Positions 9,436 through 63,030 of a stretch of 64,000 nucleotides of DNA are shown piece after piece; position 1 is the first letter of the stretch, and each line of letters begins with the position of its first letter. This DNA is from an uncultured virus (IMG/VR IMGVR_UViG_3300048911_000053) (taxonomy: Duplodnaviria; Heunggongvirae; Uroviricota; Caudoviricetes): IMG/VR virus record IMGVR_UViG_3300048911_000053. One strand, written 5' to 3'. Both the position numbers and the translations under genes were made by a program. Under the pieces are notes generated by a model. That model was not told where the DNA came from. It did not search any database and saw nothing but the letters and a program-made list of their open reading frames with translations.

Positions 9436-10229
9436 TTAGGCAGGACTCCTGTATCTTTCAAAAATTTAACGGTCTTTGGAAGAGACTTTCCGTCTTGCTT
9501 TTTAAAGCTATCAATTAATTCACTAAGGGATGTTGTAATAGTTTCTTTTACATCTTGCAAAACTGTCGTAGTTTCGTCTTTGGAAAGTGGCCCCTTGTAT
9601 GTCTCTGTGCTTGCTTTATCTTTCATTGAACCGGAGACTGACTTGGCAACTTTCGTTGTTTTAAGTTCTATAAATGTTGCTCTTTGTAAGGTGATATCTA
9701 CATTCAGAACATCACCAGAGTCAGGGTCTTCAGAGAATTGAAGATTAGTGATTACAAGATCAAGCTCATACGTAGTAGGTACTGTGCCTTCAAACTCGAT
9801 CATCGTGACTGTCTCTCGGTTATCACGAATACTGATCAAGAGATTTTTTACACGTTGTAAGCTATTAACTTCTCTATCAGCCAATTCGATTTGTGGAGAA
9901 ACACTTTTACCGAAAGGTGAGAGTGACCCTATAACTGTTTCCAAGAGTGTGTCTTGGACTTTGATAATGTTTACAGGGTCTGCTACTACATTGTTGTTTA
10001 CGAATGTGAATTCGGAGCTACTTGGTCTTCCTGTATTAAAGTCAACGCTGCTGAACACACCTTTCAATGTAAATGTTGGATTCTCAGTAACGATATGATC
10101 GTTGATCGATCCAGCACCATCAATAGGGTGCGCAGTTAATTTGCTTTGGTAAGAAGATGAGTTTGTTAGTACTGCGTCAAAGAATACTGTATCAGCTTCT
10201 GAATCTGTCCTTTGTAAAGCTATAGTCAT
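9432..10229 (-). CDS. Distal tail/tube-initiator (Dit-like) baseplate protein
   Basis: LTAHPIDGAGSINDHIVTEN motif, immediately after tape measure. Confidence 0.7.
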   Translation of the reverse strand: MTIALQRTDSEADTVFFDAVLTNSSSYQSKLTAHPIDGAGSINDHIVTENPTFTLKGVFSSVDFNTGRPSSSEFTFVNNNVVADPVNIIKVQDTLLETVIGSLSPFGKSVSPQIELADREVNSLQRVKNLLISIRDNRETVTMIEFEGTVPTTYELDLVITNLQFSEDPDSGDVLNVDITLQRATFIELKTTKVAKSVSGSMKDKASTETYKGPLSKDETTTVLQDVKETITTSLSELIDSFKKQDGKSLPKTVKFLKDTGVLPK

Positions 10230-12262: not shown

Positions 12263-12457
12263 TTACCTAGCCTGAACCTTCTGTTGTTCTTTCTTTTGGA
12301 TTTCTTCTTCTATGCTGTTCTTAGCTTCAATAATTTCTAGGAAATCGTATAAATCTTCGAGATCATAGATTGAATCAAGCTCATGCTTCGTACAGAGTTG
12401 AGGCTCAAAGAGGAGGACCGTCATAATCTCAAAATCCATTGAGAATGATTTCTCCAA
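12263..12457 (-). CDS. Tail assembly chaperone C-terminal extension (probably reached by -1 frameshift)
   Basis: -1 frame relative to 12493..12870 and open through the overlap. ELDSIYDLEDLYDFLEII motif. Confidence 0.65.
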   Translation of the reverse strand: MEKSFSMDFEIMTVLLFEPQLCTKHELDSIYDLEDLYDFLEIIEAKNSIEEEIQKKEQQKVQAR

Positions 12458-15766: not shown

Positions 15767-18700
15767 TTATAGGTTTGCTAAGAGAGTTGCCATTTGAGGT
15801 TTATCTACTGGCGATGAGAGACTGCTTGGAGTAAGCATGAACATATAAGATTGATTAACCCACGGGCCACCTGACCAATAAGCCCAACCGTTCCAAACAT
15901 CGGAATTGGAAGTCATATAATTAACAAGGGCCGGACCTTCAGAAGCACAACTAGCATCTGCTGACCAAGCAAACTCACCGAGGAATCCTTTGTAATTATT
16001 TGTTCTTGCCCACGAAGTGAATGCGGCTAAACGCGTAGAACCTGAATTTAGTGAACAAGTTGAATGTGTTCCGCTGTTGTCACTATCGAGATATTGATGT
16101 ACTTCAAACATGAAGTTAACATCGGAGAATCCTGTCCAAGCTGCTGCATTGCCACTCGATACCCATGAATGAGCACCTGTGTAGGAGCTTCCGGGTATTA
16201 AAATTAAATGAGAAGTTGTTTCTGCTCTTATTGCATTAACAGCGAGTGTTGCTACCGCCTTCCATTCCGATGCCGTGTGTCCAGTAGGTTCATTCATCAA
16301 ACCAAAGATAACGTTTGTTTGGTTTTTAAAGATGTGAGCAATTCTGGACCAGAAATCAGCAAACTTTTGTGGCATACCTGCGGAGATGCCTGTGGACGTT
16401 CCAATACTTACATTTGACCAACTTGCTTCATCCCATTTACTTCCGTAGTCATGTGGGTCGATGACCACATACATATTTTTGGAAGCACAATATTGAACAA
16501 CATTATTGATTCTGTTTACTTCAGCTTGGTTCAAAGCTCTATTACAAATTGGTTGGAGCCTTGCACCACTAACAGGGAGTCTAATTAACGTGAACCCTTT
16601 AGCTGCGTAATAGTCAATTTCGGCATTGGTCGGATACGTGTAGTGGAATGAATATGTTCCATACGGTGAAGGTTTATTAAACTCAGCACTGGAGAGATTG
16701 ACTCCTTTAAACTTATTAGGGAGTGTAGGAGGTATGAGAGGTGCTGGATAAGTGCTATTAACAAAGGTGGAAAGGGTTGGTAATGGTGTTGAGTAATATG
16801 AAGCGATATCCGCATTAAATGCACTCATATCTTGGTCACTTAATGTGTTCCCAAAGATAAAGAGTTCCCTCACTTTACCAGACCACTTCTCACCGGCAGC
16901 CCATCTAAACCAACCCATGTTGATTTGAGCACGGTTATTGTCCATCACGAGGTTAGGCGCAGTTGTAGTCTGCTGGCCAATAAGTACACCGTCGCGATAA
17001 GTTTGTTTCCCATTTATGGAATTAGCTGACCAACGTCCTGCGTAGTTATGCCACTCGTTATCAATAACCCCTATAGACAACTCTGTTGGGCTATCAATGG
17101 ATATTTCCCATTTCTTATTCTTGTTAATCCAATTGTTGTAATTACTAAACTGCCAAGACAGTAATCTTCCACCTGAACGGTGTGAGACTCTGGAAATGAG
17201 GGTCTGTCCTTGTAAGCCTTGCAATACAGAAGGGATATCCGCTCTGTGAATCCACTCCGATCTTCCATCGAATAGAACAGAAGGGTATCCATCAACATCA
17301 TTCAATATAAAGAATGGATAATCTTTTGGAGAGGTTCCACCAACTGTGTTATCTGAGAAGACAGGTTGAATATCTTGTTTCTTTATCCCTTGGTCATACC
17401 ATCGGACTAATCTTAACGATGAACCTTGTGACCAAGTTTGTATTGCTTCCCTATCCAGATCGCCATCTACAGTGAATCCAAAATCAGCGGATACACTATC
17501 AATCTCTCTCTTCAAACGAATACATGGCCCAGTGTATGGGCTGAATACTCTTCTGAATGAAAAGATATTATTGGCAAAACTGTCTGAGTTAGAAGCAGAG
17601 AACAAGTCAGGGATAGTACAGTAACTTCCATTCTGAGGATCAGCTAACGATCTATTATTTGTGCAAGATATCGTTATGATCTTCTGAGTAATAGGGGCAT
17701 TGTATTTAAAGGTTGCCCTACCGTTGAATCCAGGTGACAACACAACAGAGGATGGTGTGAAAGACCCACCAGCACCATTATCATTCGGTGTCACTGTGAT
17801 TGCTTGAGTAATTATTCCTCGATACTCTACTACCCAGTCCTCAGAAGCTTCTCCAGCATTTCCTCTTGCCGGGGTATTAGGGGCAACAAGGAAATAATAA
17901 TTAGGCTGAATACCGACTTCGGTATATTTAGTGAGGACTGCCATCTGTGTGGCGTCTTTAACACCAACAGGTGCTGTTGAGAGTGGGTATGATCCCCACA
18001 ATGGTCCAGCGGTCCAGTAATCAACTTCTAGGGAATGTATCTTACAAAAATCAAGAATATTATCTAAAGCCAAATTCCAACCAGGATCGTCGTTGCCAGC
18101 ACCCATTTCTCCGATGTGGCCCTTGTATCCATTCTTTTCCAACCAGTCAGTGAAGACTTTAATTCTTTCACGACCTGTAGTAATGGTTACTCCATTCTGT
18201 ATTTCTGTTTGCCAATTGAAATGTGTTCCAGAATTATCTCTATCTAAATAGCAGTGTGCTGAGTAGATAATTTTATTCGATGGATCATTGATATGGAGGT
18301 TGTCGTTGTACTGTGTCCATGTACCAGCAGATGACCAATTATCACCTTCAATGTAAATTGTGGAATCAACATCGACAGTTCGTATCGCATCGACAGCAGC
18401 TTGAGCTGCTAATGGCCAAGCCTGTGGTGACGGCATTGCGTTGGGTTCATTCATCAGGTCATAACTGAGTGTTGATGAATACCCTTGGAATGCAGTGGCA
18501 ATCTTTAACCAGAGATCAGCAAAATTCTCATTTGAGACATTAGGGCCACCAATCTTACCTTCAAGCCTTGATCCATAATTATGGACATCGAGAAGAACTT
18601 TCACATTAACACTAGCGCAGTAATCTACTACTGTTTTAATTCTTCCAAAATACGCTGAGTCAAAAGGTCCATTCAGTTGTGGCTGTAATCTTTCCCATCG

Positions 18701-19657
18701 AATCGGTAGACGTATTCTGTTGAAACCCTTCGATTTGAAGTAATCAATTTCAGAATTTGATGGAGCTTTATAGTTTGTGCCGTAAACGCCAGGGATAGCA
18801 CTGCCTGTGAATTCCAAACCTGCTAAGTTAATCCCCATAGAGAACACACCAAAACTTGGTGATTCAACATTTGTGTATGCATGAACTACAGGGGAGTAAG
18901 CGGAGTATTGGCCATTTCTTGAAGTACGCGATCGATAATAGTAAATACCGTGCGTTGGTAGACCAGTGTCATCAAAAGAGTAAGGGTGGCTCTGTGCATT
19001 TGCTTGATTATATATTTCCGCCCAATTACTTCCATCAGCACTTCTTTCAACTGTTAGGACGCAGTTTGCCGTGTAGTTGTAAATGTCTACACGTATACTT
19101 GTATCGGATAATGTAGATACTGATAAATGAGGTATAGCAGGAGGGGCGAGGTAGGGTATTGAAATTTCCTCCCCTCTGAGATTGTTCATTATTATCTTAT
19201 CGATAACATCAATCTTTTCGCGACTCTCGGAGGCAAATGCAAATGTGATATCAACAACGTAACGTGGTATCCACTTGGTGTCTCTTTTTTCAGGCTGAAA
19301 CTTTGGCTGTCGTTTATTAATAATCGAGATGTTTCTGAAACCAAACTCTTGCCAGTATTTTACATGGGAGAGGTTATGCAGGAATTCAGTACATAGTGTT
19401 GGAGAGTCGTCACCGACAAAAATAAACTGAACCTTACACGAATATTCATTTCTGATTAAAAGGGTTTCAGCATCATCTGTCAGCGTACCTTGATACTCTC
19501 TTCCAACTTGAACAAGTTGATTGGCTACCAAGGCAAGGCAATTTCCCTTCGGCTCTGGATAGCTTTGATACATAAAATATATATGGCTTTGAGGGATGCT
19601 TGTGACTAACGATACGCAATCGAATAATGCATCTTCAAATTCTTTTAAATAACTCAT
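15767..19657 (-). CDS. Tail completion/terminator protein fused to FN3, GH5 glycoside hydrolase, Ig-like and LamG-like modules and a second GH5
   Basis: First ~165 aa occupy the tail-terminator slot (YPEPKGNC...RYVVDITFAF). Two GH5 domains with GINLAGLEF/GVNLSSAEF, RLPIRWERLQP/RLPVSGARLQP, DVHNYG/DPHDYG, MNEP twice, IGEMG/LGEFA. Confidence 0.85.
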   Translation of the reverse strand: MSYLKEFEDALFDCVSLVTSIPQSHIYFMYQSYPEPKGNCLALVANQLVQVGREYQGTLTDDAETLLIRNEYSCKVQFIFVGDDSPTLCTEFLHNLSHVKYWQEFGFRNISIINKRQPKFQPEKRDTKWIPRYVVDITFAFASESREKIDVIDKIIMNNLRGEEISIPYLAPPAIPHLSVSTLSDTSIRVDIYNYTANCVLTVERSADGSNWAEIYNQANAQSHPYSFDDTGLPTHGIYYYRSRTSRNGQYSAYSPVVHAYTNVESPSFGVFSMGINLAGLEFTGSAIPGVYGTNYKAPSNSEIDYFKSKGFNRIRLPIRWERLQPQLNGPFDSAYFGRIKTVVDYCASVNVKVLLDVHNYGSRLEGKIGGPNVSNENFADLWLKIATAFQGYSSTLSYDLMNEPNAMPSPQAWPLAAQAAVDAIRTVDVDSTIYIEGDNWSSAGTWTQYNDNLHINDPSNKIIYSAHCYLDRDNSGTHFNWQTEIQNGVTITTGRERIKVFTDWLEKNGYKGHIGEMGAGNDDPGWNLALDNILDFCKIHSLEVDYWTAGPLWGSYPLSTAPVGVKDATQMAVLTKYTEVGIQPNYYFLVAPNTPARGNAGEASEDWVVEYRGIITQAITVTPNDNGAGGSFTPSSVVLSPGFNGRATFKYNAPITQKIITISCTNNRSLADPQNGSYCTIPDLFSASNSDSFANNIFSFRRVFSPYTGPCIRLKREIDSVSADFGFTVDGDLDREAIQTWSQGSSLRLVRWYDQGIKKQDIQPVFSDNTVGGTSPKDYPFFILNDVDGYPSVLFDGRSEWIHRADIPSVLQGLQGQTLISRVSHRSGGRLLSWQFSNYNNWINKNKKWEISIDSPTELSIGVIDNEWHNYAGRWSANSINGKQTYRDGVLIGQQTTTAPNLVMDNNRAQINMGWFRWAAGEKWSGKVRELFIFGNTLSDQDMSAFNADIASYYSTPLPTLSTFVNSTYPAPLIPPTLPNKFKGVNLSSAEFNKPSPYGTYSFHYTYPTNAEIDYYAAKGFTLIRLPVSGARLQPICNRALNQAEVNRINNVVQYCASKNMYVVIDPHDYGSKWDEASWSNVSIGTSTGISAGMPQKFADFWSRIAHIFKNQTNVIFGLMNEPTGHTASEWKAVATLAVNAIRAETTSHLILIPGSSYTGAHSWVSSGNAAAWTGFSDVNFMFEVHQYLDSDNSGTHSTCSLNSGSTRLAAFTSWARTNNYKGFLGEFAWSADASCASEGPALVNYMTSNSDVWNGWAYWSGGPWVNQSYMFMLTPSSLSSPVDKPQMATLLANL

Positions 19658-27893: not shown

Positions 27894-28100
27894 TTATTTA
27901 CCTAAACGATCAATGTTTGAAGCGATTCTCTGAGCTTCAATAAGATTTTTATCATTGCATTGACCAATAACAAGAAATTCATCGGATACATCATCAACGA
28001 CAAAAACTATTTTCTTTCCTTCGCCTATTAGAATTTTAAACAGGATGTCTAACTTTTCTTGTTCTAATTCAAAATCTAAAACTTCGACTCTCAGAGTCAT
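27894..28100 (-). CDS. Hypothetical protein within the tRNA cluster
   Basis: 68-aa ORF with AAGG upstream, filling the gap between tRNAs. Confidence 0.55.
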   Translation of the reverse strand: MTLRVEVLDFELEQEKLDILFKILIGEGKKIVFVVDDVSDEFLVIGQCNDKNLIEAQRIASNIDRLGK

Positions 28101-28117
28101 TCATTAACCTTTTGAAA

Positions 28118-28206
28118 TGGCGGAAAGTTGATGGCACGATCACCAAACCCGCTAAGGCTCCAACTGTTTAGCAAACAGCGTTCAACACCTGTTGAATTAA
28201 CTTTCC
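28118..28206 (-). tRNA. tRNA-Ser(GCT) with 6-bp D-stem
   Basis: GCTGT-TTGCTAA-ACAGT arm, long variable arm, G73, CCA. Confidence 0.85.
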
Positions 28207-28214
28207 ATTTAATT

Positions 28215-28352
28215 CGGCACAAGGGTAGGGAATCGAACCCCACTCGGCACAGTGATTATCTTAGCGCTACAATAAAAACTGCTTTAAGCCTTTACCACTA
28301 CATACTTCAACATTCAGCGTGCGCACGCTTAGAATGCTTAATATGCCCTTGC
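28215..28352 (-). ncRNA. 138-nt tRNA-like RNA (acceptor stem and T-arm, enlarged interior)
   Basis: GCAAGGG/CCCTTGT acceptor, TGGGG-TTCGATT-CCCTA T-arm, two long hairpins in place of D and anticodon arms. Confidence 0.7.
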
Positions 28353-28359
28353 ATGAAAT

Positions 28360-28446
28360 TGGCGGAAGAAGTGAGACTCGAACTCACGGAACCCGGAGGT
28401 TCGGCGGTTTTCAAGACCGCTGCAATAGCCGCTATGCGACTCTTCC
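28360..28446 (-). tRNA. tRNA-Ser(TGA)
   Basis: GCGGT-CTTGAAA-ACCGC arm, long variable arm, CCA. Confidence 0.92.
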
Positions 28447-28454
28447 ATAATGTT

Positions 28455-28531
28455 TGGTGAGACTGATAGGACTCGAACCTATAATCGTCGGATTAAAAGT
28501 CCGATGCTTTAAACCATTTAGCTACAATCTC
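28455..28531 (-). tRNA. tRNA-Lys(TTT)
   Basis: TCGGA-CTTTTAA-TCCGA arm, CCA. Confidence 0.92.
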
Positions 28532-28532
28532 T

Positions 28533-28607
28533 TGGCAGGCCACTACGGATTTGAACCGCAACCACAAGCATTTGGAGTGCTGTATGCTACCGTTACACTA
28601 ATGACCT
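28533..28607 (-). tRNA. tRNA-Trp(CCA)
   Basis: AGCA-CTCCAAA-TGCT arm, G73, CCA. Confidence 0.9.
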
Positions 28608-28614
28608 ATTTAGT

Positions 28615-28690
28615 TGGTAGGGATATTGAGGATCGAACTCAATACTTCCGCGTGAAAGGCGGGAGTTTTAACCAAATAAACTACATCCCC
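28615..28690 (-). tRNA. tRNA-Glu(TTC)
   Basis: CCGC-CTTTCAC-GCGG arm, CCA. Confidence 0.85.
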
Positions 28691-28692
28691 AT

Positions 28693-28768
28693 TGGAATCA
28701 CCGATTGGACTTGCACCAATATAATCCTGCTTTGCAAACAGGCGCGTAACTATCTCTGCCACAGTGAC
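28693..28768 (-). tRNA. tRNA-Cys(GCA)
   Basis: CCTGT-TTGCAAA-GCAGG arm, U73, CCA. Confidence 0.85.
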
Positions 28769-28775
28769 ATTAATT

Positions 28776-28851
28776 TGGAGCGGCTTACGAGATTCGAACT
28801 CGTAACTTCGACTTGGAAGGACGTTATGTTGCCGTTAAACACCAAAGCCGC
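28776..28851 (-). tRNA. tRNA-Gly(TCC)
   Basis: Loop CTTCCAA, GCGG/CCGC acceptor, U73, CCA. Confidence 0.88.
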
Positions 28852-28859
28852 TTTTAATA

Positions 28860-28934
28860 TGGTGGACGATAACGGTATCGAACCGTTCCCTCAGCAGTGC
28901 AAGTGCCGCGTGCTCCCATCAACACCTAAAGCCC
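28860..28934 (-). tRNA. tRNA-Ala(TGC)
   Basis: CGGCA-CTTGCAC-TGCTG arm, G3-U70, A73, CCA. Confidence 0.85.
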
Positions 28935-28991
28935 ATATTGCTGTCTCAACCTTTCGGGAAACAGACTTCAACCAACAATGTTGGATGTTAC

Positions 28992-29066
28992 TGGAGCTAC
29001 GGCCCGGAGTTGCGCCGGGTTCTCACGCTTACAAGGCGCGTGCATCACTAACAATGCTTACATAGC
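28992..29066 (-). tRNA. tRNA-Thr(TGT)
   Basis: CGCGC-CTTGTAA-GCGTG arm, atypical T-loop CGCAACT, CCA. Confidence 0.82.
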
Positions 29067-29143
29067 GAAATTCGAGGCTTGTTTATTGTCCGGTACAAGC
29101 TTAAACCGGAGAGAAAAGCCAAGGAGAGGAAGGCTTATTTAAC

Positions 29144-29269
29144 TGAAAGCATTTGGTTTCATACGTGCTCTATCCAATTGAGCTAGAGGCATTTTGCAAT
29201 GCCTTGTAGGACTCGAACCTACATCACGCCATTAGCAGTGGGAGAAGTTTTAGTTGCTGTATGCTTTCA
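29144..29269 (-). ncRNA. Circularly permuted tRNA-like RNA (anticodon GCT) inside a TACAGCAA-motif closing stem
   Basis: Order: TGAAAGCAT, ACAGCAA, CCA-CTGCTAA-TGGCG, T-arm GTAGG-TTCGAGT-CCTAC, closed acceptor AAGGCAT-TGCAAA-ATGCCTC, D-arm GCTC-AATTGGATA-GAGC, ACGTA, ATGCTTTCA. Confidence 0.85.
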
Positions 29270-29274
29270 AAAGG

Positions 29275-29349
29275 CTGGCGTACTTGGACTCGAACCAAGC
29301 TCATTCCTGATTAACAGTCAGGCACCCTCACCCGGAGAGCTATACGCCA
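29275..29349 (-). tRNA. tRNA-Asn(GTT), CCA not encoded
   Basis: CCTGA-CTGTTAA-TCAGG arm, U1-A72, G73, followed by CCT. Confidence 0.88.
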
Positions 29350-29630
29350 TTTATTTTATAACCTGTAAGTTTGCGCGTAAGACTCTTAATCGTGCTTATA
29401 CGTCCAAGTAACAGAGGCGTACAGGTTTTATTATTCTGGTTGTGCATCTACCACCTGATCACAACGACTCAATCCCTAATCGGATTGCCTTCACCACAAC
29501 TGGCTTTCACCAGATAGCCTGTCGGCCATAACCCAAACGGTCCAAGTTTGGTTGTTCTTATTATTGTTAAATACTGATTACTCAGCGTTGCACTGAGCTA
29601 GATGCGCGTAGTTTGGACTGGAGGGATTTG

Positions 29631-29963
29631 TTACGGAGTTAATGAGAGCTTGAGAATTGCGCCATTCTTAGTGGCTATTTCTTCTTCGTCGCCATCAACA
29701 TCGGATTCTTTACCGTTCAAGCGGACTTCATCTTCAACTACTGCAACACGTACATCAACGTAAGTACCAACGATGTATTTTGCAGCATTAAGTCGAGTTT
29801 CATCTTTCTCAGCACTCAACATTATGGAGTGTATCTTCTGAATTGCATCAGGAGTGATGTCTTCAAGAAGCTGTTGTACTTTTCTGAGTTTAGACTTCTT
29901 TCCGCCAGAACCTTTTGGTCTACCACGAGTGTTGCCACTCTGACCGGGCTGGAACTGTGCCAT
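29631..29963 (-). CDS. Probable terminase small subunit (DUF5681-like N-terminus)
   Basis: MAQFQPGQSGNTRGRPKG motif; upstream of the tRNA cluster and terL. Confidence 0.6.
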   Translation of the reverse strand: MAQFQPGQSGNTRGRPKGSGGKKSKLRKVQQLLEDITPDAIQKIHSIMLSAEKDETRLNAAKYIVGTYVDVRVAVVEDEVRLNGKESDVDGDEEEIATKNGAILKLSLTP

Positions 29964-30103
29964 GTATTATTATTCTCAATAAATTTCAAGCAGTGTTTCA
30001 GGGTTTATATTGAAACGTTTGTAATCTGCTGGTTCAAAGTGTTTACGAATCACCGTTCATTTGGTGGAAGTAATACTTATCTAAATCTTTCACTGTATAT
30101 AAC

Positions 30104-38696: not shown

Positions 38697-38780
38697 TGGA
38701 TGGGCAGGGAGGATTGGGTCAGCTGTTTGCTCAATTATCTTGATAGTAATCATCGTAGCAATTTTTGTTTAGGAGGAAGA

Positions 38781-39356
38781 TTGGAAACATATTGGACAAG
38801 TGATCTTCACTGGCACCATGCAAGAATTCAGGAGTTTACTGGAAGACCGTGGAATGTTGAAGATCAAACGGAAGCATTAATTAATATTTGGAACGCACAA
38901 GTAAAACCGGGAGACACAGTATATCACTTAGGTGATTTCTGTTTCGGCCTGAATAAAGCTGAAGCAATTCCAAAGATTGTAAAGCGTCTTAATGGAAATA
39001 TTGGTTTCATTCTTGGTAATCACGATACGAGAGCGCACTACGAACAACTAAAAGAAATGTTCGGCGGACGTGTGCTGTTTGTAGAAGACTTCAAACGTAT
39101 TCGTGTCAGCAAGAAAGAAATTACGCTTTGCCATTATCCACTTGTTGTTTGGGAAAATTCTCATCATGGGAAATGGAGCCTTCATGGACATTGCCACGGC
39201 AGTTATGAGCATCCGGGTAGAAGTCTTGATGTAGGGTTAGATAATGCAATCAAGGTACTTGGTGGATACAGACTATTTACTTTTGATGACCTGAATAATT
39301 ACTTCAGAGATAGAGAACCTTGGATGCCAGATCATCATAATGTGAGGACGACATGA
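38781..39356 (+). CDS. Calcineurin-like metallophosphoesterase
   Basis: TSDLHWHH, YHLGDF, LGNHD, CHYP, LHGHCH. TTG start chosen from AGGAGG at 38771. Confidence 0.9.
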   Translation: METYWTSDLHWHHARIQEFTGRPWNVEDQTEALINIWNAQVKPGDTVYHLGDFCFGLNKAEAIPKIVKRLNGNIGFILGNHDTRAHYEQLKEMFGGRVLFVEDFKRIRVSKKEITLCHYPLVVWENSHHGKWSLHGHCHGSYEHPGRSLDVGLDNAIKVLGGYRLFTFDDLNNYFRDREPWMPDHHNVRTT

Positions 39357-39577
39357 TTTCAGCAGAAGAATTAAGAAAGTTTAAATTGGAACTAACAGAG
39401 GATAATTTCATTGAGAGAGTGCTCTTTGCAATAGAAGGCTGTGCTCGGGTTGGGACTGATAAGTTTGAACTTAAATTCTCTTATCCGCCAGGAGGCTTGT
39501 ATGAATTAATAGCTATTGTCAAAAGAAAAGGATTTCTTACTGATGTCTCTAGTCAACGCTTAGTTATTTCTTGGTAA
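39353..39577 (+). CDS. Hypothetical protein
   Basis: Coupled ORF ending LVISW. Confidence 0.55.
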   Translation: MISAEELRKFKLELTEDNFIERVLFAIEGCARVGTDKFELKFSYPPGGLYELIAIVKRKGFLTDVSSQRLVISW

Positions 39578-39595
39578 AACATTAAGGAGAACACG

Positions 39596-39928
39596 GTGAC
39601 AATTAGTTTAGCTGCTGTATTAGTTTTGATATGGATTCACTTTATTGCGGACTTCATTTTTCAAACAGACAAAATGGCATTGAATAAAAGCTCTAATACA
39701 AAATGGTTATCCATTCATGTGCTTGTGTACTCACTATTCTTCGCTTTCTTTGGATGGAAGTTTACAGCAGTTACATACATAGCGCATTGGTTGACAGACT
39801 TCGTATCGAGCAGGGTGACATCGTATTTGTGGAAGAAAGAAAAACGCCACTGGTTCTTTGTCGTAATTGGATTAGATCAAGCGCTACATATGACAGCGTT
39901 AATCTTGGCATATTTTTATTTAGTTTAA
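39596..39928 (+). CDS. DUF3307-like membrane protein
   Basis: HFIADFIFQT, HWLTD, GLDQALH. Confidence 0.85.
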   Translation: MTISLAAVLVLIWIHFIADFIFQTDKMALNKSSNTKWLSIHVLVYSLFFAFFGWKFTAVTYIAHWLTDFVSSRVTSYLWKKEKRHWFFVVIGLDQALHMTALILAYFYLV

Positions 39929-39950
39929 TAGAAAACACTTTAAGGAATAA

Positions 39951-41096
39951 ATGAGTAGCACATATAAAGTTCCATTAACAACAATCAAGGAAATTAAGCC
40001 CCACGGTAATGCAGACAGACTCGAAATAGTTTATGTGTACGGATGGGAAGTAGTAGCAGCAAAAGGTCAATACAAAATTGGTGATGTTGCATTTTATGTA
40101 CCGATTGATTCGATCTTAGATCAAGGTTTAGAGAATTTTCTGTTTCCTCCTGATTCTAAAATCAAACTCGATAAACATAGAGTGAGACAAATTAAAATCC
40201 GTGGTGTTGCATCACAGGGTATGTTGATTAATCCACAGACGTTGATTGATGCAGGCTTATTTAAAGGTGATCTAATTCTTGAGGATGATTATGCAGAGGT
40301 ATTAGGTATCACTAAATATGACCCTCCTGCACCTAAAGAACATACTGGTACGGGTTTACCAGCACCGAAGAAACGTAAACTAGAAAATCCAGAGTTTAAG
40401 AAGTACGGTGGATTAGATAACTACAAATGGTATCCAGATTTGTTCCAAGAAGGCGAATTGGTAGTCATCGAAGAAAAAATACATGGCTCTCATGTTCGAT
40501 GTGGTATGGCTCCTGTCCAAGTCGATACATGGTGGAAGAAAGTTAAGAAATTCTTTGGCTTCCTCCCAACACATGAATGGGTATATGGATCGAACAACGT
40601 TCAATTGCAGACTAAGGCAAAGAATAAGTTCACTGGATACTACGATACGAATATCTATTGTGAAGTATTGGAGAAGTACAACATTCAAAGCAAGCTCCAA
40701 CCCGGTGAGTATTTACATGGGGAAGTTTATGGCTCAGGTGTTCAGAAAAACTATCACTACGATTGCAGTGAAGGTGAACGCAGGCTTTGTATCTTTGATG
40801 TTCGAGTGACTGATCCAGTGACAGGTGTACAACGTTATCTTGATCCCGATGAACGCTTCCATTGGCTAGGTACGCGAGGTCTTGGGTCACTCGGTGTTCC
40901 AAACTTGTATTGGGGTGAATGGAGAGGTGTTGATCATGCCAAGACACTGACTATAGGTAATTCAGTGATGGCTCCCGGTCAAAAGGTGATGGAAGGCGTC
41001 GTGATTCGTAATGTGGATTACAGCGATGGCCGTAAGATTCTGAAGCTTATTAGTGAAGACTATTTAGCTGATTCTACGAATACAGATCATCATTAA
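39951..41096 (+). CDS. RNA ligase (Rnl2/DRB0094-like with N-terminal OB domain)
   Basis: PHGNADRLE, KIRGVASQG, EEKIHGS, HGEVYGSGVQ, IFDV, EGVVIR, KLISEDYL. Confidence 0.9.
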   Translation: MSSTYKVPLTTIKEIKPHGNADRLEIVYVYGWEVVAAKGQYKIGDVAFYVPIDSILDQGLENFLFPPDSKIKLDKHRVRQIKIRGVASQGMLINPQTLIDAGLFKGDLILEDDYAEVLGITKYDPPAPKEHTGTGLPAPKKRKLENPEFKKYGGLDNYKWYPDLFQEGELVVIEEKIHGSHVRCGMAPVQVDTWWKKVKKFFGFLPTHEWVYGSNNVQLQTKAKNKFTGYYDTNIYCEVLEKYNIQSKLQPGEYLHGEVYGSGVQKNYHYDCSEGERRLCIFDVRVTDPVTGVQRYLDPDERFHWLGTRGLGSLGVPNLYWGEWRGVDHAKTLTIGNSVMAPGQKVMEGVVIRNVDYSDGRKILKLISEDYLADSTNTDHH

Positions 41097-41098
41097 CA

Positions 41099-41674
41099 AT
41101 GAAAGAGAATAGATGCAGAACTTGTAATACCGTAGACCAAAGTGTTAGGTGGGGTAGTAAAACACTCTGCCACGCTTGCTACCAAAAAGAATATGTTGAG
41201 ACTAATGCATTAAAGCGTATATGTGCATCTTGTGGATCAACAGAATCTAAAGGTTCATGGTATCGCGGCCCAAAATGTAGTAAATGCTACCATAATGGGA
41301 GATATCAAGAAGGGAGGTCTAGGAGTCCATCACAAAAATATAGTCACCTTGTTTCACAATCGAAACGAAGAAACTCTGTGATGGAAATATCTAAGGAAGA
41401 GTATCTAGATTTGATAAAAGATGGATGTTTTTATTGTGACAGGGATTTATTTAGATTTACTGGGCACAGTCTAGATAAAGTTGATTCTGATAGAGGGTAC
41501 GTAATAGGGAATGTTCTTCCTTGTTGCGGAGACTGCAACAGCCTGCGTATGAATATTCTCACTGTAGATGAAACTATAGAGGTAGTTAAACTCATCAGGA
41601 TTATTCGAGGCACACTGGAGAGTCCTTGGGACTGCCAAACGAGAGCAGATGAAGCCACCCTTTATTTTGATTAA
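41099..41674 (+). CDS. HNH endonuclease with Cys-rich N-terminus
   Basis: CFYC...SLDKVDSDRGYVIGNVLPCCGDCN. Confidence 0.8.
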   Translation: MKENRCRTCNTVDQSVRWGSKTLCHACYQKEYVETNALKRICASCGSTESKGSWYRGPKCSKCYHNGRYQEGRSRSPSQKYSHLVSQSKRRNSVMEISKEEYLDLIKDGCFYCDRDLFRFTGHSLDKVDSDRGYVIGNVLPCCGDCNSLRMNILTVDETIEVVKLIRIIRGTLESPWDCQTRADEATLYFD

Positions 41675-41700
41675 TTCATTTAATTTATTATAAATAAACG

Positions 41701-41730
41701 TTGACATTTTATTATAGATAATACTAGAAT
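41701..41730 (+). promoter_or_regulatory. sigma70-type promoter
   Basis: TTGACA-18-TAGAAT with AT-rich upstream element. Confidence 0.75.
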
Positions 41731-41748
41731 TTAAACATTAGGAAACAT

Positions 41749-42024
41749 ATGGCAAAGACAAGAATTAAAGTAATTGAAAGAGGTAATGGAGGGGTTGATT
41801 ACATTGCTCAGGTGTTAATAAGAAATCCGGGCAGTTTATTTTACCCATTCCGTTCATGGAATAGCATCTTATATAAGTTTGATACAGGCATTCATCCATC
41901 ATTATGCGCTACGTTGGAAAGTGCTCAATATCGCATTGATGGGTATCTCGCTAAAGAGGCTGCTGAGAAAGAAGCTAAGAGGTTGCTGAAAGTTAAGAAA
42001 GTGAGATATGTCAAATACCCATAA
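41749..42024 (+). CDS. Hypothetical protein
   Basis: First ORF after the promoter, AGGA RBS. Confidence 0.6.
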   Translation: MAKTRIKVIERGNGGVDYIAQVLIRNPGSLFYPFRSWNSILYKFDTGIHPSLCATLESAQYRIDGYLAKEAAEKEAKRLLKVKKVRYVKYP

Positions 42025-42406
42025 GAGTTTAATCCTGGTGAGAGGATTACCGGGTGCTGGTAAAAGTACATTTGCAAAAAGCCTCAGAGGTCAACATTTT
42101 GAGGCTGACCAATTCTTTATTGGTGACGATGGTGTTTATCGATGGGACGGGATGCAGATTGGTGAGGCTCATGTGTGGTGTCAAACATCCACTGAGCTGG
42201 CAATGGAGCTACGTTATCCACTAATTGTTGTGTCGAACACCTTCACCACTGAGAAAGAGTTGAAGCCTTACTTGAATATGGCTAGGAAGCATAATTACCA
42301 GACAACGGTATTGATTGTTGAAAATAGGAACTCTACTGAGAGTGTACATAACGTACCTCCAGAGGTGATTGAGAAAATGAGAGCGAGGTTTAGCGTAAGG
42401 CTATGA
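42008..42406 (+). CDS. P-loop kinase (polynucleotide kinase/AAA_33-like)
   Basis: LVRGLPGAGKSTFA, FEADQFF, VVSNTFT, HNVPPEVIEKM. Confidence 0.88.
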   Translation: MSNTHKSLILVRGLPGAGKSTFAKSLRGQHFEADQFFIGDDGVYRWDGMQIGEAHVWCQTSTELAMELRYPLIVVSNTFTTEKELKPYLNMARKHNYQTTVLIVENRNSTESVHNVPPEVIEKMRARFSVRL

Positions 42407-51607: not shown

Positions 51608-52654
51608 TTACCTGTAAAAACGCAGCCTTTCCTTGTATGCATTGAGAATGAGTTGTTCAACCAACAAAGGATCAACCTTATCAGGGAATTCTGAATTTTC
51701 AGCCAGTCCTTCAACCTCCTTGATAATTTCATCGAGTAATTCACTCACCTCAGAAAATGGCCTTTCCCCACGTTTAACACTCAGTAAAAAGTCAGCATTG
51801 CCTAATGGGTATTTCAAATCACCAATCACGTAGATTTGTTTGAGTTGATAGGCTGCTCTTAGGGCATGACTCATTGCTTTCCAGTCAACCCCTTCGTTCT
51901 GCATCGCCAAACGAGCGCGCTCGCCGTACTCGTTCCATTTGGCTGTGAGGAGGCGTTTGAATTCTTCAATTCGCATAGTGGGTTGATAGAGCGATCCAAG
52001 AACAGAGTAATACTCCATCTCAGGACGCCTCACCATAAAGCAATGTTCATTGATGGGGAGATTATTCCATTCGATCGATAGATATCTATCAACAGGCTTT
52101 CCATCAATTAAGGCCCCGCCAAAACCGTGGGAAGGAACAGAATGGATAAATTCATAAGTTGTACGGAGAGCGGCTAGACGACTTCCCTTGACTCCGTATT
52201 TATTGGCTTGCTTTTTACAATACCCTAGAAATGCTTTCATGTTCTTTGTATAGAATTCATTCCGTTTAGATCGAATCAAAAGCCACGGAAGATCACCATA
52301 CAAATAAGCATGAGTTACATCATTTGAATGGATCATATCCATTGCAATGGTTTCACCTTCAGATAGCATATGCATAAATTTCTGGATGCTATAAATAGTG
52401 ATTTCAAGATCATTTGCCTTGTTCTTCTCATCTTTACTCTTGACAGGGGCAAATGAGTATTGATCCTTGGCTTTCCCCAGTAACATATTGTTAATGCTCG
52501 GTATATAGATACCTTTAACGTCAATGTCTGAATCAATTGTATTGGTTCCATACAGATAAGAGCCGTGGAGGGTGACAAACATTAGCTTGTCTTGTGGGGC
52601 GGCCTCTCTTTGGAAAAAGTCAATAGTTTCTTGCAGTATTCTCAGCTTGTCCAC
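51608..52654 (-). CDS. Pol-beta superfamily nucleotidyltransferase (T4 NrdC.11/RlaP-like)
   Basis: HGSYLYGTNTIDSDIDVKGIYIP, GYCKKQANKYGVKGSRL, DWKAMSHALR, LLSVKRG. GTG start chosen by RBS. Confidence 0.85.
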   Translation of the reverse strand: MDKLRILQETIDFFQREAAPQDKLMFVTLHGSYLYGTNTIDSDIDVKGIYIPSINNMLLGKAKDQYSFAPVKSKDEKNKANDLEITIYSIQKFMHMLSEGETIAMDMIHSNDVTHAYLYGDLPWLLIRSKRNEFYTKNMKAFLGYCKKQANKYGVKGSRLAALRTTYEFIHSVPSHGFGGALIDGKPVDRYLSIEWNNLPINEHCFMVRRPEMEYYSVLGSLYQPTMRIEEFKRLLTAKWNEYGERARLAMQNEGVDWKAMSHALRAAYQLKQIYVIGDLKYPLGNADFLLSVKRGERPFSEVSELLDEIIKEVEGLAENSEFPDKVDPLLVEQLILNAYKERLRFYR

Positions 52655-52809
52655 TTCTCTTCCTTTATATAGATAAATAATGCTCACTAAAGTATAATAA
52701 ATAAATGTGAAAGTCAACTACTAAAATTAATAAATTAAGTGTTGCACAGTATAATAAATAAGTATAATCTGTTTCTAAGATTAAAGTTAACAGAGGATGA
52801 GAAAACAAA

Positions 52810-61233: not shown

Positions 61234-61692
61234 ATGAACGTTAAGCACATGAAGATGATGGCTGACTTGCTGCGAGAGATTGCTGCTGACAAGAAGCTGA
61301 AGAAGCATTTTAACTTGAGAAGTTGGGTAGGTCGCCCTGGAGTTTTAATGGGGAGGACAGAACTTGTAAAGAAACCAAAAGATATGAAAGTACTGGTTTC
61401 TGAATGTGGGACTACTGCATGTGCTTGTGGGTATGCAGGACTGACTCTAGCTTTCATTAAGAAAGGTTTTCAATACAATTCCATAAACCATGACATCACT
61501 TACACAACCGAAGATAATATATTCTTCGCTTGGGAAGCAGTAAAGAAGTTCTTTGACCTAAGCTCGGATATGGCGGAATGGTTATTCTTATATGATACCT
61601 ATTTCGATGCATTCAAAAATGAACACGATCCTAAACCATCCGATGTCCTTCGTCGTGTAGAGTTTTTAATAGAAGAATACACAGCCCGGTAA
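61234..61692 (+). CDS. Hypothetical phage protein (CGTTACACG motif)
   Basis: AGGAG RBS; promoter-like TTGCAG..TATTAT upstream. Confidence 0.7.
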   Translation: MNVKHMKMMADLLREIAADKKLKKHFNLRSWVGRPGVLMGRTELVKKPKDMKVLVSECGTTACACGYAGLTLAFIKKGFQYNSINHDITYTTEDNIFFAWEAVKKFFDLSSDMAEWLFLYDTYFDAFKNEHDPKPSDVLRRVEFLIEEYTAR

Positions 61693-61698
61693 AGATTT

Positions 61699-61758
61699 TG
61701 GAAGCCTTCAGCAAACACTAACATTTGACTTCTAATCAAACCACGTTAAGTGCTTCCA
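61699..61758 (+). ncRNA. Minimal TTCAGCAA-motif RNA displaying an anticodon stem-loop (TCT)
   Basis: TGGAAGC/GCTTCCA closing stem, TTCAGCAAACA, TTTGA-CTTCTAA-TCAAA hairpin. Confidence 0.7.
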
Positions 61759-61779
61759 GTTAATTAAGAGGAAAGATCA

Positions 61780-62397
61780 ATGACATTGCTCGAACAAATC
61801 AAAGCAAACTTGGCAGCAGATCGTAAGAGCGCCAACAGAAGTTCAATCAGCATTCATACAGTGATTATTGGCGAATGCGAACGTGTCCATAAAGACCTGA
61901 ACGATGAAGGTGTAATCAGAGTCTTGAAGAAGCTTCTTAAAGATACAAAAGATGCTTTAAGTTACTTCAAGAGTCCTATTGCAGTAGAGGCAGCAGAGTT
62001 TGAGATTAAAGTGATTGAGTCTTATCTTCCTAAACAACTCACTGAGTATGAGATAAAGAATCAAGTTTCAGTTGCTCGTTCTCTCGGTTGTAATGATGTT
62101 GGAGCAATCATGGGTTTCTTTAAGAAGCAACATAGTGGCCGGTACGATGGAGCACTTGTGAGTAAGTATGCAAAAGGCTTCACCCTTATTGAGCTGTTGA
62201 TAGGTACTGCCATAATTGGAATTGTTGGCGTTATCTTTGTTGGTGCAGTCAAAGGAACTCAGGATAACAACCTGACATACGGCATTAATGGTTTTGTGGA
62301 AACACGTTGTATCAGTGGATATCAGTTTACGGTTGGTGAGCGAGGCCATGTTCATCAAATCTATGATGAGAATGGCCGAGGATTGCCTTGTAAGTAA
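61780..62397 (+). CDS. GatB/YqeY-like domain fused in frame to a prepilin-type (type IV pilin N-terminal motif) protein
   Basis: LLEQIKANL...EIKVIESYLPKQLTEYEI...GAIMGFFKKQHSGRYDGALVSK (YqeY), then KG|FTLIELLIGTAIIGIVGVIFV. Confidence 0.8.
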   Translation: MTLLEQIKANLAADRKSANRSSISIHTVIIGECERVHKDLNDEGVIRVLKKLLKDTKDALSYFKSPIAVEAAEFEIKVIESYLPKQLTEYEIKNQVSVARSLGCNDVGAIMGFFKKQHSGRYDGALVSKYAKGFTLIELLIGTAIIGIVGVIFVGAVKGTQDNNLTYGINGFVETRCISGYQFTVGERGHVHQIYDENGRGLPCK

Positions 62398-62663: not shown

Positions 62664-62672
62664 TCTAAGTTT

Positions 62673-62807
62673 TGCATCCTTACAGCAAACAATCTTCTAT
62701 CCATGTGGAGGACGTAGGGTTGGTTCGAATCCAACCTCCCCGGTCTAGCGGGGAGTAGTGTAGTGGTAGCACGCGTAAAGAGATGGTGGTAATCCACTAA
62801 GGATGCA
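62673..62807 (+). ncRNA. Circularly permuted tRNA-like RNA (anticodon GTG) inside a TACAGCAA-motif closing stem
   Basis: TGCATCCTTA/TAAGGATGCA stem, TCC-ATGTGGA-GGACG, GTTGG-TTCGAAT-CCAAC, CTCCCCG-GTCTAG-CGGGGAG, GTGT-AGTGGTA-GCAC, GCGTA. Confidence 0.85.
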
Positions 62808-62815
62808 GTAGTTTG

Positions 62816-62900
62816 GCCCGAATAGCGCGTAAGTCTTTGTTGTTAGCTTACCGGCAACAATAAAGCGCCGAAAACGTATTCGATGAAAGGTCGAAAGGGC
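62816..62900 (+). ncRNA. Candidate structured RNA between the two permuted tRNAs
   Basis: GCCC/GGGC, CGAATA/TATTCG, GCGC/GCGC and TTGTTGTT/GGCAACAA pairings; no ORF. Confidence 0.45.
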
Positions 62901-62910
62901 AGATTATTTT

Positions 62911-63030
62911 TGGATGACTACAGCAAACAAACAGCCTATTAAGCCGTGGGTCGTAGGTTCGAGTCCTGCCTCCGTAACTGTAATCGGTACGGTGTAGCTC
63001 AGTTGGTAGAGCAACGTAAATGTTCATCCA
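62911..63030 (+). ncRNA. Circularly permuted tRNA-like RNA (anticodon ATT) inside a TACAGCAA-motif closing stem
   Basis: TGGATGA/TCATCCA stem, GC-CTATTAA-GCCGT, GTAGG-TTCGAGT-CCTGC, CTCCGTA-11nt-TACGGTG, GCTC-AGTTGGTA-GAGC, AACGTA. Confidence 0.85.

Follow-up and report, generated by a model that had tools for sequence, protein, structure and literature searches.

A permuted tRNA look-alike in a phage tRNA operon is, judged by its sequence, a YrlA-like Y RNA and may serve a divergent Ro60-like protein

Background

Ro60-Y RNA particles are an RNA-surveillance device conserved from bacteria to humans. The bacterial Y RNAs of the YrlA type are defined by a GNCGAAN0-1G motif near the 5' end, by V, T, closed 'AS', and D elements, by covariation of the tertiary pair 15:48, and by a Ro60 gene that is encoded on the same strand at a distance of at most 4 kb (Chen et al. 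2014, PMC4201824). Dimeric tRNAs are reported in the same paper to give false YrlA matches. The GNCGAAN0-1G motif is the proposed contact to Ro60. Canonical YrlA RNAs do not contain an anticodon loop, and the binding partner of the tRNA-like module of bacterial Y RNAs is an open question (Wang et al. 2018, bioRxiv 10.1101/312249). In phages, the Ro60 of Thermus phage phiLo binds two phage Y-like RNAs and the host PNPase, whose activity it lowers (PMC12135203), and TROVE proteins with a tRNA-like partner have been placed among the phage RNA-repair systems (Iyer et al. 2021, PMC7824862). The RNA described here, termed element C, is encoded in a stretch of 64,000 nucleotides from an uncultured Caudoviricetes phage (IMG/VR record IMGVR_UViG_3300048911_000053), and this whole stretch is called the window in the following.

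Element C is a 126-nt circularly permuted cloverleaf at 29144-29269 on the minus strand, inside the tRNA operon of the phage. As far as can be judged from its sequence, it is a genuine small RNA that belongs to the tRNA-mimicking Y RNAs of the YrlA-like kind, and not a tRNA gene. In addition, we give a probability of roughly two in three to the view that this Y RNA serves a divergent Ro60-like protein of the phage. The analyses given below demonstrate the structure of the element, the RNA family to which it belongs, the Ro60-like fold of the protein in its predicted model, and the linkage between the gene and the RNA.

Structure of element C

In the 5' to 3' direction, element C is built from a closing stem (P1), the motif UACAGCAA, an anticodon-like hairpin, a T arm, a closed acceptor hairpin, and a D arm. 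The parts and the two neighbouring tRNAs are located as follows:

29143-29270, minus strand: whole RNA from the P1 5' strand through the P1 3' strand (sequence; covariance model R1, see below, at 29144-29269; fold; YrlA match)
29261-29270, minus strand: P1 5' strand, which pairs with 29143-29152 (sequence; covariation in relatives)
29254-29261, minus strand: handle motif UACAGCAA, family consensus U-N-C-W-G-C-A-A, in the place of the GNCGAAN0-1G of YrlA (sequence)
29227-29241, minus strand: anticodon-like hairpin of 3 bp with the 7-nt loop CUGCUAA, followed by CG (sequence)
29206-29222, minus strand: T arm of 5 bp with a canonical 7-nt T loop (sequence; YrlA match)
29186-29205, minus strand: closed acceptor-like hairpin with a GCAA loop and without CCA (sequence; fold)
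29167-29183, minus strand: D arm of 4 bp, loop with A14, A15, G18G19, and A21 (sequence; family conservation)
29143-29152, minus strand: P1 3' strand, followed by UUAA (sequence)
29273-29349, minus strand: tRNA-Asn(GUU), the upstream neighbour (ARAGORN)
28992-29066, minus strand: tRNA-Thr(UGU), the downstream neighbour (ARAGORN)

P1 consists of nine Watson-Crick pairs, or of 10 bp if the terminal U.G is counted. UACAGCAA is located directly 3' of P1 and is connected to the anticodon-like hairpin by a 12-nt linker. The CG following this hairpin pairs with the CG at 29164-29165, resulting in an anticodon-like stem of 5 bp, and a variable stretch of four nucleotides lies between this stem and the T arm. 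In the acceptor-like helix six of the seven pairs of the tRNA register are formed, and there is one extra pair. The D arm is preceded by U8-A9 and followed by A26 and then CG (ACG-UA), and an 11-nt linker on the 3' side leads to the P1 3' strand. The minimum free energy of element C is -35.6 kcal/mol (z = -2.93), and none of 200 shuffled sequences folds equally well. P1, the T arm, the acceptor hairpin, and the D arm are all present in the minimum free energy fold.

ARAGORN identified 13 tRNAs in the operon and did not call any tRNA between tRNA-Asn and tRNA-Thr, where element C is located. The original prediction, which was made from the sequence alone, had described a minus-strand element at this position, and every part that it named was found in its place, including the five perfect pairs of the rebuilt anticodon stem. 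Its two other copies, supposed to lie 33 kb away, are present at 62672-62808 (copy A) and 62910-63030 (copy B) on the plus strand, at a distance of about 33.4 kb. It had also considered that a misassembly of two tRNA halves would argue against the element. There is no sign of such a misassembly because independent Logan contigs from two other runs, belonging to different studies, span the whole of element C without differences (X4, 28966-29344; X6, 28914-29289). None of the 24 sequencing runs listed is an RNA run containing the element C stretch. A dimeric tRNA can be rejected as well because the two acceptor strands of element C are complementary to each other and P1 closes the unit.

Relation to YrlA RNAs

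At the gathering threshold, Rfam detects only tRNAs in the window. With E-value thresholds, YrlA (RF02553) is the only non-tRNA family that matches element C, with 31.1 bits at 29167-29226 (model positions 27-81 of 114). The other copies score 38.2 bits (copy B) and 22.6 bits (copy A), and only the tRNA-like module aligns. The Rfam tRNA model (RF00005) covers nothing except the T arm of element C, with 13.9 bits and thus below threshold. A canonical tRNA is a contiguous cloverleaf with free acceptor ends; the acceptor of element C is a closed hairpin. As in YrlA, the T arm, the closed acceptor-like stem-loop, and the D arm follow each other in this order and contain the elbow nucleotides, and the 15:48 (Levitt) covariation is represented by A15 and U48. 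The layout is already known from the YrlA-type Y RNAs, according to the description by Chen et al. (2014, PMC4201824) and the Rfam match, and does not represent a new kind of tRNA gene.

The RNA family across phages

To describe the family, IMG/VR was scanned for ACAGCAA followed by a T-loop motif 20-50 nt later, which resulted in at least 129 loci. Among the 151 scan matches listed, which include the three from the window, 113 contain a closing stem of at least 6 bp starting 0-2 nt before the motif. P1 and the acceptor were not aligned correctly by MAFFT (23 elements), and the covariance model R1 was therefore built from a seed of 11 elements with a hand-set structure. Copy B (92.3 bits), element C (91.2 bits, over the full model length), and copy A (60.6 bits) all match this model. 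Dimeric tRNA pairs also match R1, at 27-43 bits.

The structure was tested on 87 R1 matches representing 80 distinct sequences. In these, 87.8% of the cells are paired compared to 56.7% in shuffles (0 of 500 reach the observed value) and to 33-44% if the partners are slid. Changes on both sides were found in 28 of the 29 pairs, among them all nine pairs of P1, and all six helices are supported. Pairing amounts to 99.5% in the T arm, 83.7% in the anticodon-like hairpin, and 90.1% in the two closing pairs. The tertiary pair 15:48 covaries (A-U 33, G-C 30, A-C 3, and G-U 2; Fisher 2e-13), and U8, A14, G18G19, and A21 are nearly invariant. An anticodon-like loop of seven nucleotides is present in 62 of the 80 sequences, and these loops have U33 (53/62), A37 (54/62), and A38 (56/62) in common and display 25 different triplets. 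Other family members contain loops of 5, 6, or 8 nt, or do not have a D arm or acceptor. In the elements with 7-nt loops the third triplet position is U in 39 of 62 cases, counted over rows that are not independent, and the commonest triplets are GUU, UGU, UUU, and GCU, which are the triplets of tRNAs reading ANN codons.

Elements that had not been picked by the exact motif contain UCAGCAA, UCUGCAA, GCAGCAA, and similar sequences, from which the consensus U-N-C-W-G-C-A-A is derived. A scan without this motif, searching for a T loop and then a D arm, gave 120 matches, of which 21 have at least six of seven acceptor pairs; by eye, about 13 of these 21 are real closed-acceptor elements. The exact ACAGCAA is found upstream of 4 of these 21 matches compared to 1 of the 99 others. 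Thus, the handle, as P1 together with the motif is called here, marks a frequent subtype but not all permuted mimics.

In some phages the handle is part of a different kind of gene. The locus L181 encodes at 9457-9574 on the plus strand a non-permuted tRNA-like gene with an acceptor, a D arm, a UCC anticodon loop, a T arm, and an ACCA end, in which a 41-nt insertion comprising the P1 hairpin and UACAGCAA interrupts the 5' strand of the anticodon stem. ARAGORN does not call this gene. A handle insertion in a similar tRNA is located just upstream of position 10001 in the locus L191. Close homologues of the tRNA operon region were not detected in the phage part of GenBank: megablast with window 28000-30000 gave no match, and a distant blastn search gave 34 records, none of which covers 80% of the query. 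The best blastn match, Aeromonas phage 1233, was rejected as a homologue; the match merely spans the T arm of a tRNA and the tRNA after it.

A Ro60-like protein encoded beyond the window

The window ends shortly before the gene for the supposed protein partner. The locus L140 belongs to the same phage; it is 100% identical to the window over the overlap (window position 63076 corresponds to L140 position 10001) and reaches 10 kb past the window end. The extension contains the rest of a 431-aa vWA gene, three handle units, a SpoT-like HD gene, and the following open reading frame (ORF):

L140 12399-13817, about 1.5 kb past the window end, plus strand: 472-aa ORF with the Pfam domains DUF2828 (89.8 bits) and DUF7788 (148.7 bits)

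Copies A and B are on the same strand as this gene and precede it by about 2.4-2.8 kb. The Pfam TROVE domain (PF05731) does not match the 472-aa protein even at E-values up to 10, and it was not found in any of the 64 window ORFs submitted to Pfam (of 85 ORFs of at least 100 aa). A profile search against PDB sequences recovered TROVE chains only at an E-value of 0.5. Comparison of an alignment of 35 homologues with a phage Rsr by hhalign resulted in a probability of 74% and an E-value of 2.7e-5 for the vWA part, and the D-x-S-x-S motif is invariant in the 35 homologues. Of the 30 ESM Atlas clusters that are nearest to the protein, its own families set aside, 25 belong to one TROVE + vWA_Ro60 family set.

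The AlphaFold model of the protein has a predicted local distance difference test score (pLDDT) of 82.4 and a predicted template modelling score (pTM) of 0.77. In a Foldseek search of the PDB with this model, all 12 listed matches with E-values of 2.3e-8 to 1.4e-5 are Ro60/TROVE structures, and 13 matches have an E-value of at most 0.001. The Ro60 matches are from phage phiLo, Xenopus, Deinococcus, and human, and align over the full length (491-581 columns) with template modelling (TM) scores of 0.47-0.63. Plain vWA domains enter the list only from an E-value of 1.7e-3. The model thus contains a HEAT-repeat ring followed by a vWA domain with a MIDAS, and these comparisons, as far as a predicted model allows, point to a divergent Ro60-like protein. 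The family is large: among 8,000 scored candidates 7,801 have an E-value of at most 1e-5, so that it comprises at least 7,801 clusters at 90% identity. Every named protein among the 120 best listed family members is annotated as 'hypothetical protein'.

The 431-aa vWA-domain gene (phrog_26613), which directly follows copies A and B, was considered as well. It was rejected as a conserved partner since it is present in only 3 of 25 carrier contigs (defined below), and closer relatives of this gene have coding genes upstream. It was also rejected as a Ro60 ring; its model consists of a generic N-terminal vWA/MIDAS domain and a beta-rich C-terminal part. The gene adjoins the Y-like RNAs both here and in Synechococcus phage BUCT-ZZ01.

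Linkage between RNA and gene

The linkage was approached from both sides. Starting from the RNA, 21 of the 25 contigs with ACAGCAA-type elements (the carriers) encode DUF7788, compared to only one of 25 control contigs, which were chosen solely for their tRNA arrays. If only contigs with a completeness of at least 90% are counted, the numbers are 13 of 15 for the carriers and 1 of 10 for the controls. Among the 25 carriers, one has Pfam TROVE. The distance from the gene to the element that the pattern had caught is at most about 1.2 kb in 9 of the 21 carriers with DUF7788 and at most 10 kb in 15, and all 15 elements share the strand of the gene. Starting from the protein, 80 IMG/VR loci holding the DUF2828+DUF7788 gene were analysed with 3-kb flanks. 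In 51 loci a P1+NCWGCAA unit is encoded on the same strand as the gene and no more than 400 nt from its ends, compared to 3 loci with such a unit on the opposite strand. The positive loci are spread over 20 of the 26 protein clusters at 70% identity and over 37 of the 53 clusters at 90% identity.

R1 matches directly abut the gene on the same strand in the loci L143, L144, and L161 and in the cyanophage BUCT-ZZ01 (L009). Among 20 near-complete relatives (82-96 kb), only two contain full-length R1 matches, both of which are located beside a Ro60-type gene. In one of them (G060) this is a DUF2828-type gene. In the other (G068) it is a canonical TROVE + vWA_Ro60 gene, and the RNA does not contain the NCWGCAA motif. 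The record nearest to the window (G001) is a 57.8-kb fragment that stops before the Ro60-like locus.

Other handle units and neighbouring genes in the same phage

In addition to element C, the phage encodes two full copies and four shorter handle units, which are located as follows together with the adjoining vWA gene:

62672-62808, plus strand: copy A, same architecture, loop AUGUGGA, 7/7 acceptor pairs, extra hairpin in the 3' linker (YrlA, R1, fold)
62910-63030, plus strand: copy B, same architecture, loop CUAUUAA (YrlA, model positions 23-87; R1; fold)
61698-61759, plus strand: short handle unit of P1 and UUCAGCAA with the 3' flank UUAA, whose sole cargo is an anticodon-stem-loop-like hairpin (4 bp, 7-nt loop) (sequence; fold)
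L140 11358-11423, 12117-12176, and ~12316-12400, plus strand: three further P1+UACAGCAA units beyond the window end (sequence)
63076-64000 and on to L140 11296, plus strand: 431-aa vWA-domain gene (phrog_26613), whose 5' part lies in the window

Copy A folds with z = -4.38. The anticodon-like triplet of copy B is AUU. The short unit at 61698-61759, located between the ORF 61234-61692 and a YqeY-like ORF, folds with z = -2.51, and 3 of 200 shuffles fold as well. The units in L140 are interspersed among the vWA gene, the HD (SpoT-like) gene, and the Ro60-like gene, and the cargo of one of them is a T arm only. Element C and the six other units of the phage share the handle and the end signature of P1, 5'-UUG...CAG-3' followed by UUAA.

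Several further features were observed around these units. Each of the three L140 units is followed by a structured-looking stretch, about 100-250 nt in length, with a closing GUAGU... stem. The spacer that separates copy A from copy B (95 nt; 62811-62905, plus strand) contains self-complementary stretches and no ORF, and may be another small RNA. Just upstream of the two copies, at 61780-62397 on the plus strand, a YqeY-like (GatB/YqeY) domain is fused to a prokaryotic N-terminal methylation (pilin-like) motif. A promoter-like repeat (a TTGCA-type -35 and an extended TATAAT followed by AAAT) was noticed by eye at ~60530, ~61178, and L140 ~11316, where it precedes the tRNA-Met/Arg pair, an ORF, and the first downstream handle unit. 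Far from these units, the ORF at 15767-19657 (minus strand; 1296 aa) in the tail/neck module encodes both a neck-terminator domain and a strongly matching GH5 cellulase domain (329 bits).

Proposed role and alternative explanations

As a Y RNA, element C would be co-transcribed with the tRNA operon and would probably be freed by the enzymes that process its tRNA neighbours. P1, which pairs the 5' and 3' ends, and the single-stranded UACAGCAA would together form the handle, and by analogy with Ro60 and Y RNA this handle might be bound by the phage's own Ro60-like ring, the DUF2828+DUF7788 protein. The rest of the molecule is expected to fold into an L-shaped tRNA look-alike with a closed acceptor and a complete anticodon-like stem-loop. 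As in Ro60-Y RNA particles, this tRNA-like module could bring a tRNA-binding partner to the ring, for example a host nuclease such as PNPase, an anticodon nuclease, or the RNA-repair enzymes of the phage. Alternatively, it could occupy the partner as a decoy. The likeliest explanation for the location of element C is that the same ribonucleoprotein (RNP) uses an extra RNA copy that is made with the tRNAs. A role around tRNA damage, be it as decoy, sensor, or repair scaffold, is plausible because of the authentic anticodon loops, the variety of the triplets, and the repair genes of the phage. The latter are located at 38700-42406 and 51608-52717 in the window and comprise a phosphoesterase, an RNA ligase, an AAA_33 kinase, and an RlaP nucleotidyltransferase. 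The RNA ligase consists of a PHA02142 OB domain and an RNA_ligase domain, and Macro and PhoH are encoded nearby. In the control contig G044 a DUF2828-type gene directly adjoins an RNA ligase of this type.

Several observations weigh against a Y RNA that serves the DUF2828+DUF7788 protein. Concerning the RNA class, element C and copies A and B all score far below the YrlA gathering score of 69 bits, and GNCGAAN0-1G is absent 5' of the tRNA-like module in all three, its place being taken by UACAGCAA. With about 36 kb to the Ro60-like gene and a location on the opposite strand, element C does not show the published YrlA synteny, and copies A and B show it only if a DUF2828-type protein is counted as Ro60. 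The covariation was determined on an alignment fitted to R1 in which most rows had been selected for ACAGCAA. Concerning the protein, the structure of the N-terminal ring is a prediction only. Concerning the linkage, four of the 25 carriers do not encode DUF7788; one of these encodes TROVE, two are 37% and 81% complete, and one is a 99%-complete provirus. From the side of the protein, 29 of the 80 gene loci have no nearby unit by the criterion used, and G044, the sole control contig with the gene, does not contain an NCWGCAA unit near it. The unit detector is loose (over whole loci it reports 163 units on the plus strand, 63 on the minus strand, and 49 in shuffled sequences), so that the evidence from the protein side is the contrast in strand and position and not the raw number of units. 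A complete permuted-tRNA cargo near the gene is limited to 9 of the 80 loci, in each of which it is on the strand of the gene; the cargo in the remaining loci is short and A-rich, a T arm only, or a larger fold. In the contig G017, three tandem YrlA-like RNAs, one of which carries ACAGCAA, precede a canonical TROVE gene. Finally, the nine nearest relatives by terminase (58-61% identity) have tRNA arrays in the same place that contain only partial R1 matches of the dimeric-tRNA type and no element C. Element C is therefore a lineage-specific addition.

Among the alternatives, a stand-alone tRNA decoy that acts without a Ro60-like protein survives best, although we consider it unlikely. Such a look-alike would be made alongside the phage tRNAs and would soak up or misdirect a host factor, for example an anticodon nuclease or a tRNA-modifying or tRNA-processing enzyme. 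This would agree with the membership of element C in the tRNA operon, remote from the Ro60-like gene and on the strand opposite to it, and with the authentic-looking anticodon loop, whose U33, A37, and A38 and whose triplet diversity are family-wide features. The phage also encodes RNA-repair genes of the kind that has been tied to conflicts with anticodon nucleases (Iyer et al. 2021, PMC7824862). However, element C contains exactly the P1+UACAGCAA handle of the copies beside the Ro60-like gene, and across phages the handle tracks this gene (21/25 versus 1/25 contigs, and 51/80 versus 3/80 loci). It is hard to imagine of what use a conserved handle would be to a pure decoy.

It is very improbable that element C has no function and is a relic of a tRNA-tRNA rearrangement, a false positive of the dimeric-tRNA type, or an assembly artefact. 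Dimeric tRNAs are indeed known as false YrlA matches (PMC4201824), tRNA pairs also match R1, and element C is restricted to its lineage. Against this, the complementary acceptor strands are connected by a tetraloop and the unit is closed by P1, the R1 score of 91 bits extends over the full model, the helices covary in the relatives, and the contigs of two other runs carry the element unchanged. The suggestion that the copies form a selected family instead of being an accident of rearrangement is borne out by the three full copies and four shorter handle units in this phage and by the covariation over 80 distinct relatives.

The least probable alternative, with hardly any chance of being correct, is a true permuted tRNA gene, whose transcript would form a circle closed at P1, from which a break in the acceptor loop would give a working GCU tRNA, perhaps with the help of the phage RNA ligase and kinase: all parts of a tRNA are present including the rebuilt anticodon stem and an acceptor helix of nearly 7 bp, genes for RNA ligase, kinase, and phosphoesterase are present in the phage, and other phages have non-permuted tRNAs with the same handle inserted, but the acceptor is closed by a loop of 4-6 nt and does not have a CCA, no bulge-helix-bulge could be drawn at the junction by eye (a dedicated search was not made), the triplet of copy B is AUU, relatives have loops of 5, 6, or 8 nt or no D arm or acceptor, and the conserved handle and the Ro60-like linkage would be left unexplained. 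In addition, a GCU anticodon together with a variable region of four nucleotides does not fit a bacterial tRNA-Ser. The original prediction had concluded from the missing long variable arm that the RNA is unlikely to be serylated. It was right in that element C is not an ordinary tRNA-Ser, but the argument from seryl-tRNA synthetase recognition is moot because the acceptor is a closed hairpin without a CCA end. The term 'mimic' that it had used is appropriate for such a permuted tRNA look-alike.

A more far-reaching interpretation can be drawn up, which is tentative and slightly easier to doubt than to accept. The DUF2828+DUF7788 ring, the P1+UNCWGCAA handle, and a modular cargo could constitute a second, very large phage Ro60-like RNP system directed against anticodon-nuclease damage. 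It would have been overlooked because the ring protein is filed under DUF2828+DUF7788. Its cargo would comprise permuted tRNA mimics with varied anticodon loops, a T arm only, an anticodon stem-loop only, or A-rich sequences, and in some phages the handle would be inserted into the anticodon stem of an otherwise normal CCA-ended tRNA. The ring might then display look-alikes of tRNAs or anticodon loops to sense, divert, or repair the damage caused by host anticodon nucleases.

Novelty and significance

The tRNA-mimic layout and the pairing with Ro60 are known. The NCWGCAA handle, the complete anticodon arm, and DUF2828+DUF7788 proteins as Ro60-like partners were not found in the literature searched, and the supplements of Chen et al. 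(2014), with their list of 22 phages, or Burroughs and Aravind (2016, PMC5062991) could cover part of this. Judged by the listed titles, the search for permuted tRNAs in bacteriophages gave no paper on phage elements. The searches for DUF2828 and for DUF7788/PF25043/PF11443 gave unrelated papers only, and none was found that joins TROVE and RNA repair under 'ROT TROVE'. Thus, a phage set of handle-bearing tRNA-mimic RNAs travelling with a Ro60 relative appears to be widespread and seemingly undescribed.

If the linkage is real, there is a large branch of Ro60-like proteins that are divergent in sequence and have their own RNA handle. The cargos of the RNAs would form a natural series that begins with a bare anticodon stem-loop and ends with a full tRNA mimic, and such a series could reveal the purpose of the tRNA-like module. 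The linkage would also account for phage tRNA mimics that seem to have no protein partner. For annotation it is of importance that handle RNAs in tRNA arrays escape the tRNA finders and the Rfam thresholds and can pass for broken or misassembled tRNA genes.

Comparison with known systems

Small stable RNAs of unknown role within a tRNA cluster, as element C would be, are also present in phage T4 (species 1 and 2). We know of no permuted layout or Ro60 link for these RNAs. In the permuted tRNA genes of Cyanidioschyzon merolae and some archaea the 3' half of the cloverleaf is encoded first and the termini pair, as in element C, and these genes give working tRNAs via the splicing endonuclease, a circular intermediate, and RNase P / tRNase Z. 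In contrast, the junction of element C is located in the anticodon stem, is combined with a conserved handle, and does not form a bulge-helix-bulge that could be drawn by eye. Members of the handle family that have partial cargo cannot be tRNAs.

The phiRo60 of phage phiLo with its RNAs Yrl1 and Yrl2 (PMC12135203) resembles the phage described here in that a phage-encoded Ro60-type ring protein adjoins Y-like RNA genes, and the structures that match the modelled DUF2828+DUF7788 protein best are those of phiLo (PDB 9KOP and 9L5Y). However, phiRo60 contains a Pfam-type TROVE, and its identity to the protein described here is about 15% in the Foldseek alignment. The phiLo RNAs differ by a CGAA motif in a stem-bulge-stem and, in the part of that paper used here, are not described as full tRNA mimics (PMC12135203).

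The closest relatives of element C and its copies are the YrlA RNAs. The phage family differs from them by having UNCWGCAA instead of GNCGAAN0-1G and a complete anticodon-like hairpin with a 7-nt loop, by the linked protein, which escapes the Pfam TROVE model, and by the location of element C in a tRNA operon far from the gene. Both have in common the permuted module of variable stretch, T arm, closed acceptor hairpin, and D arm with the RNA ends paired at the position of the anticodon stem, the conserved elbow nucleotides, the 15:48 covariation, and the occurrence in phages and in tandem, and copies A and B are, like YrlA, located near a Ro60-type gene on the same strand.

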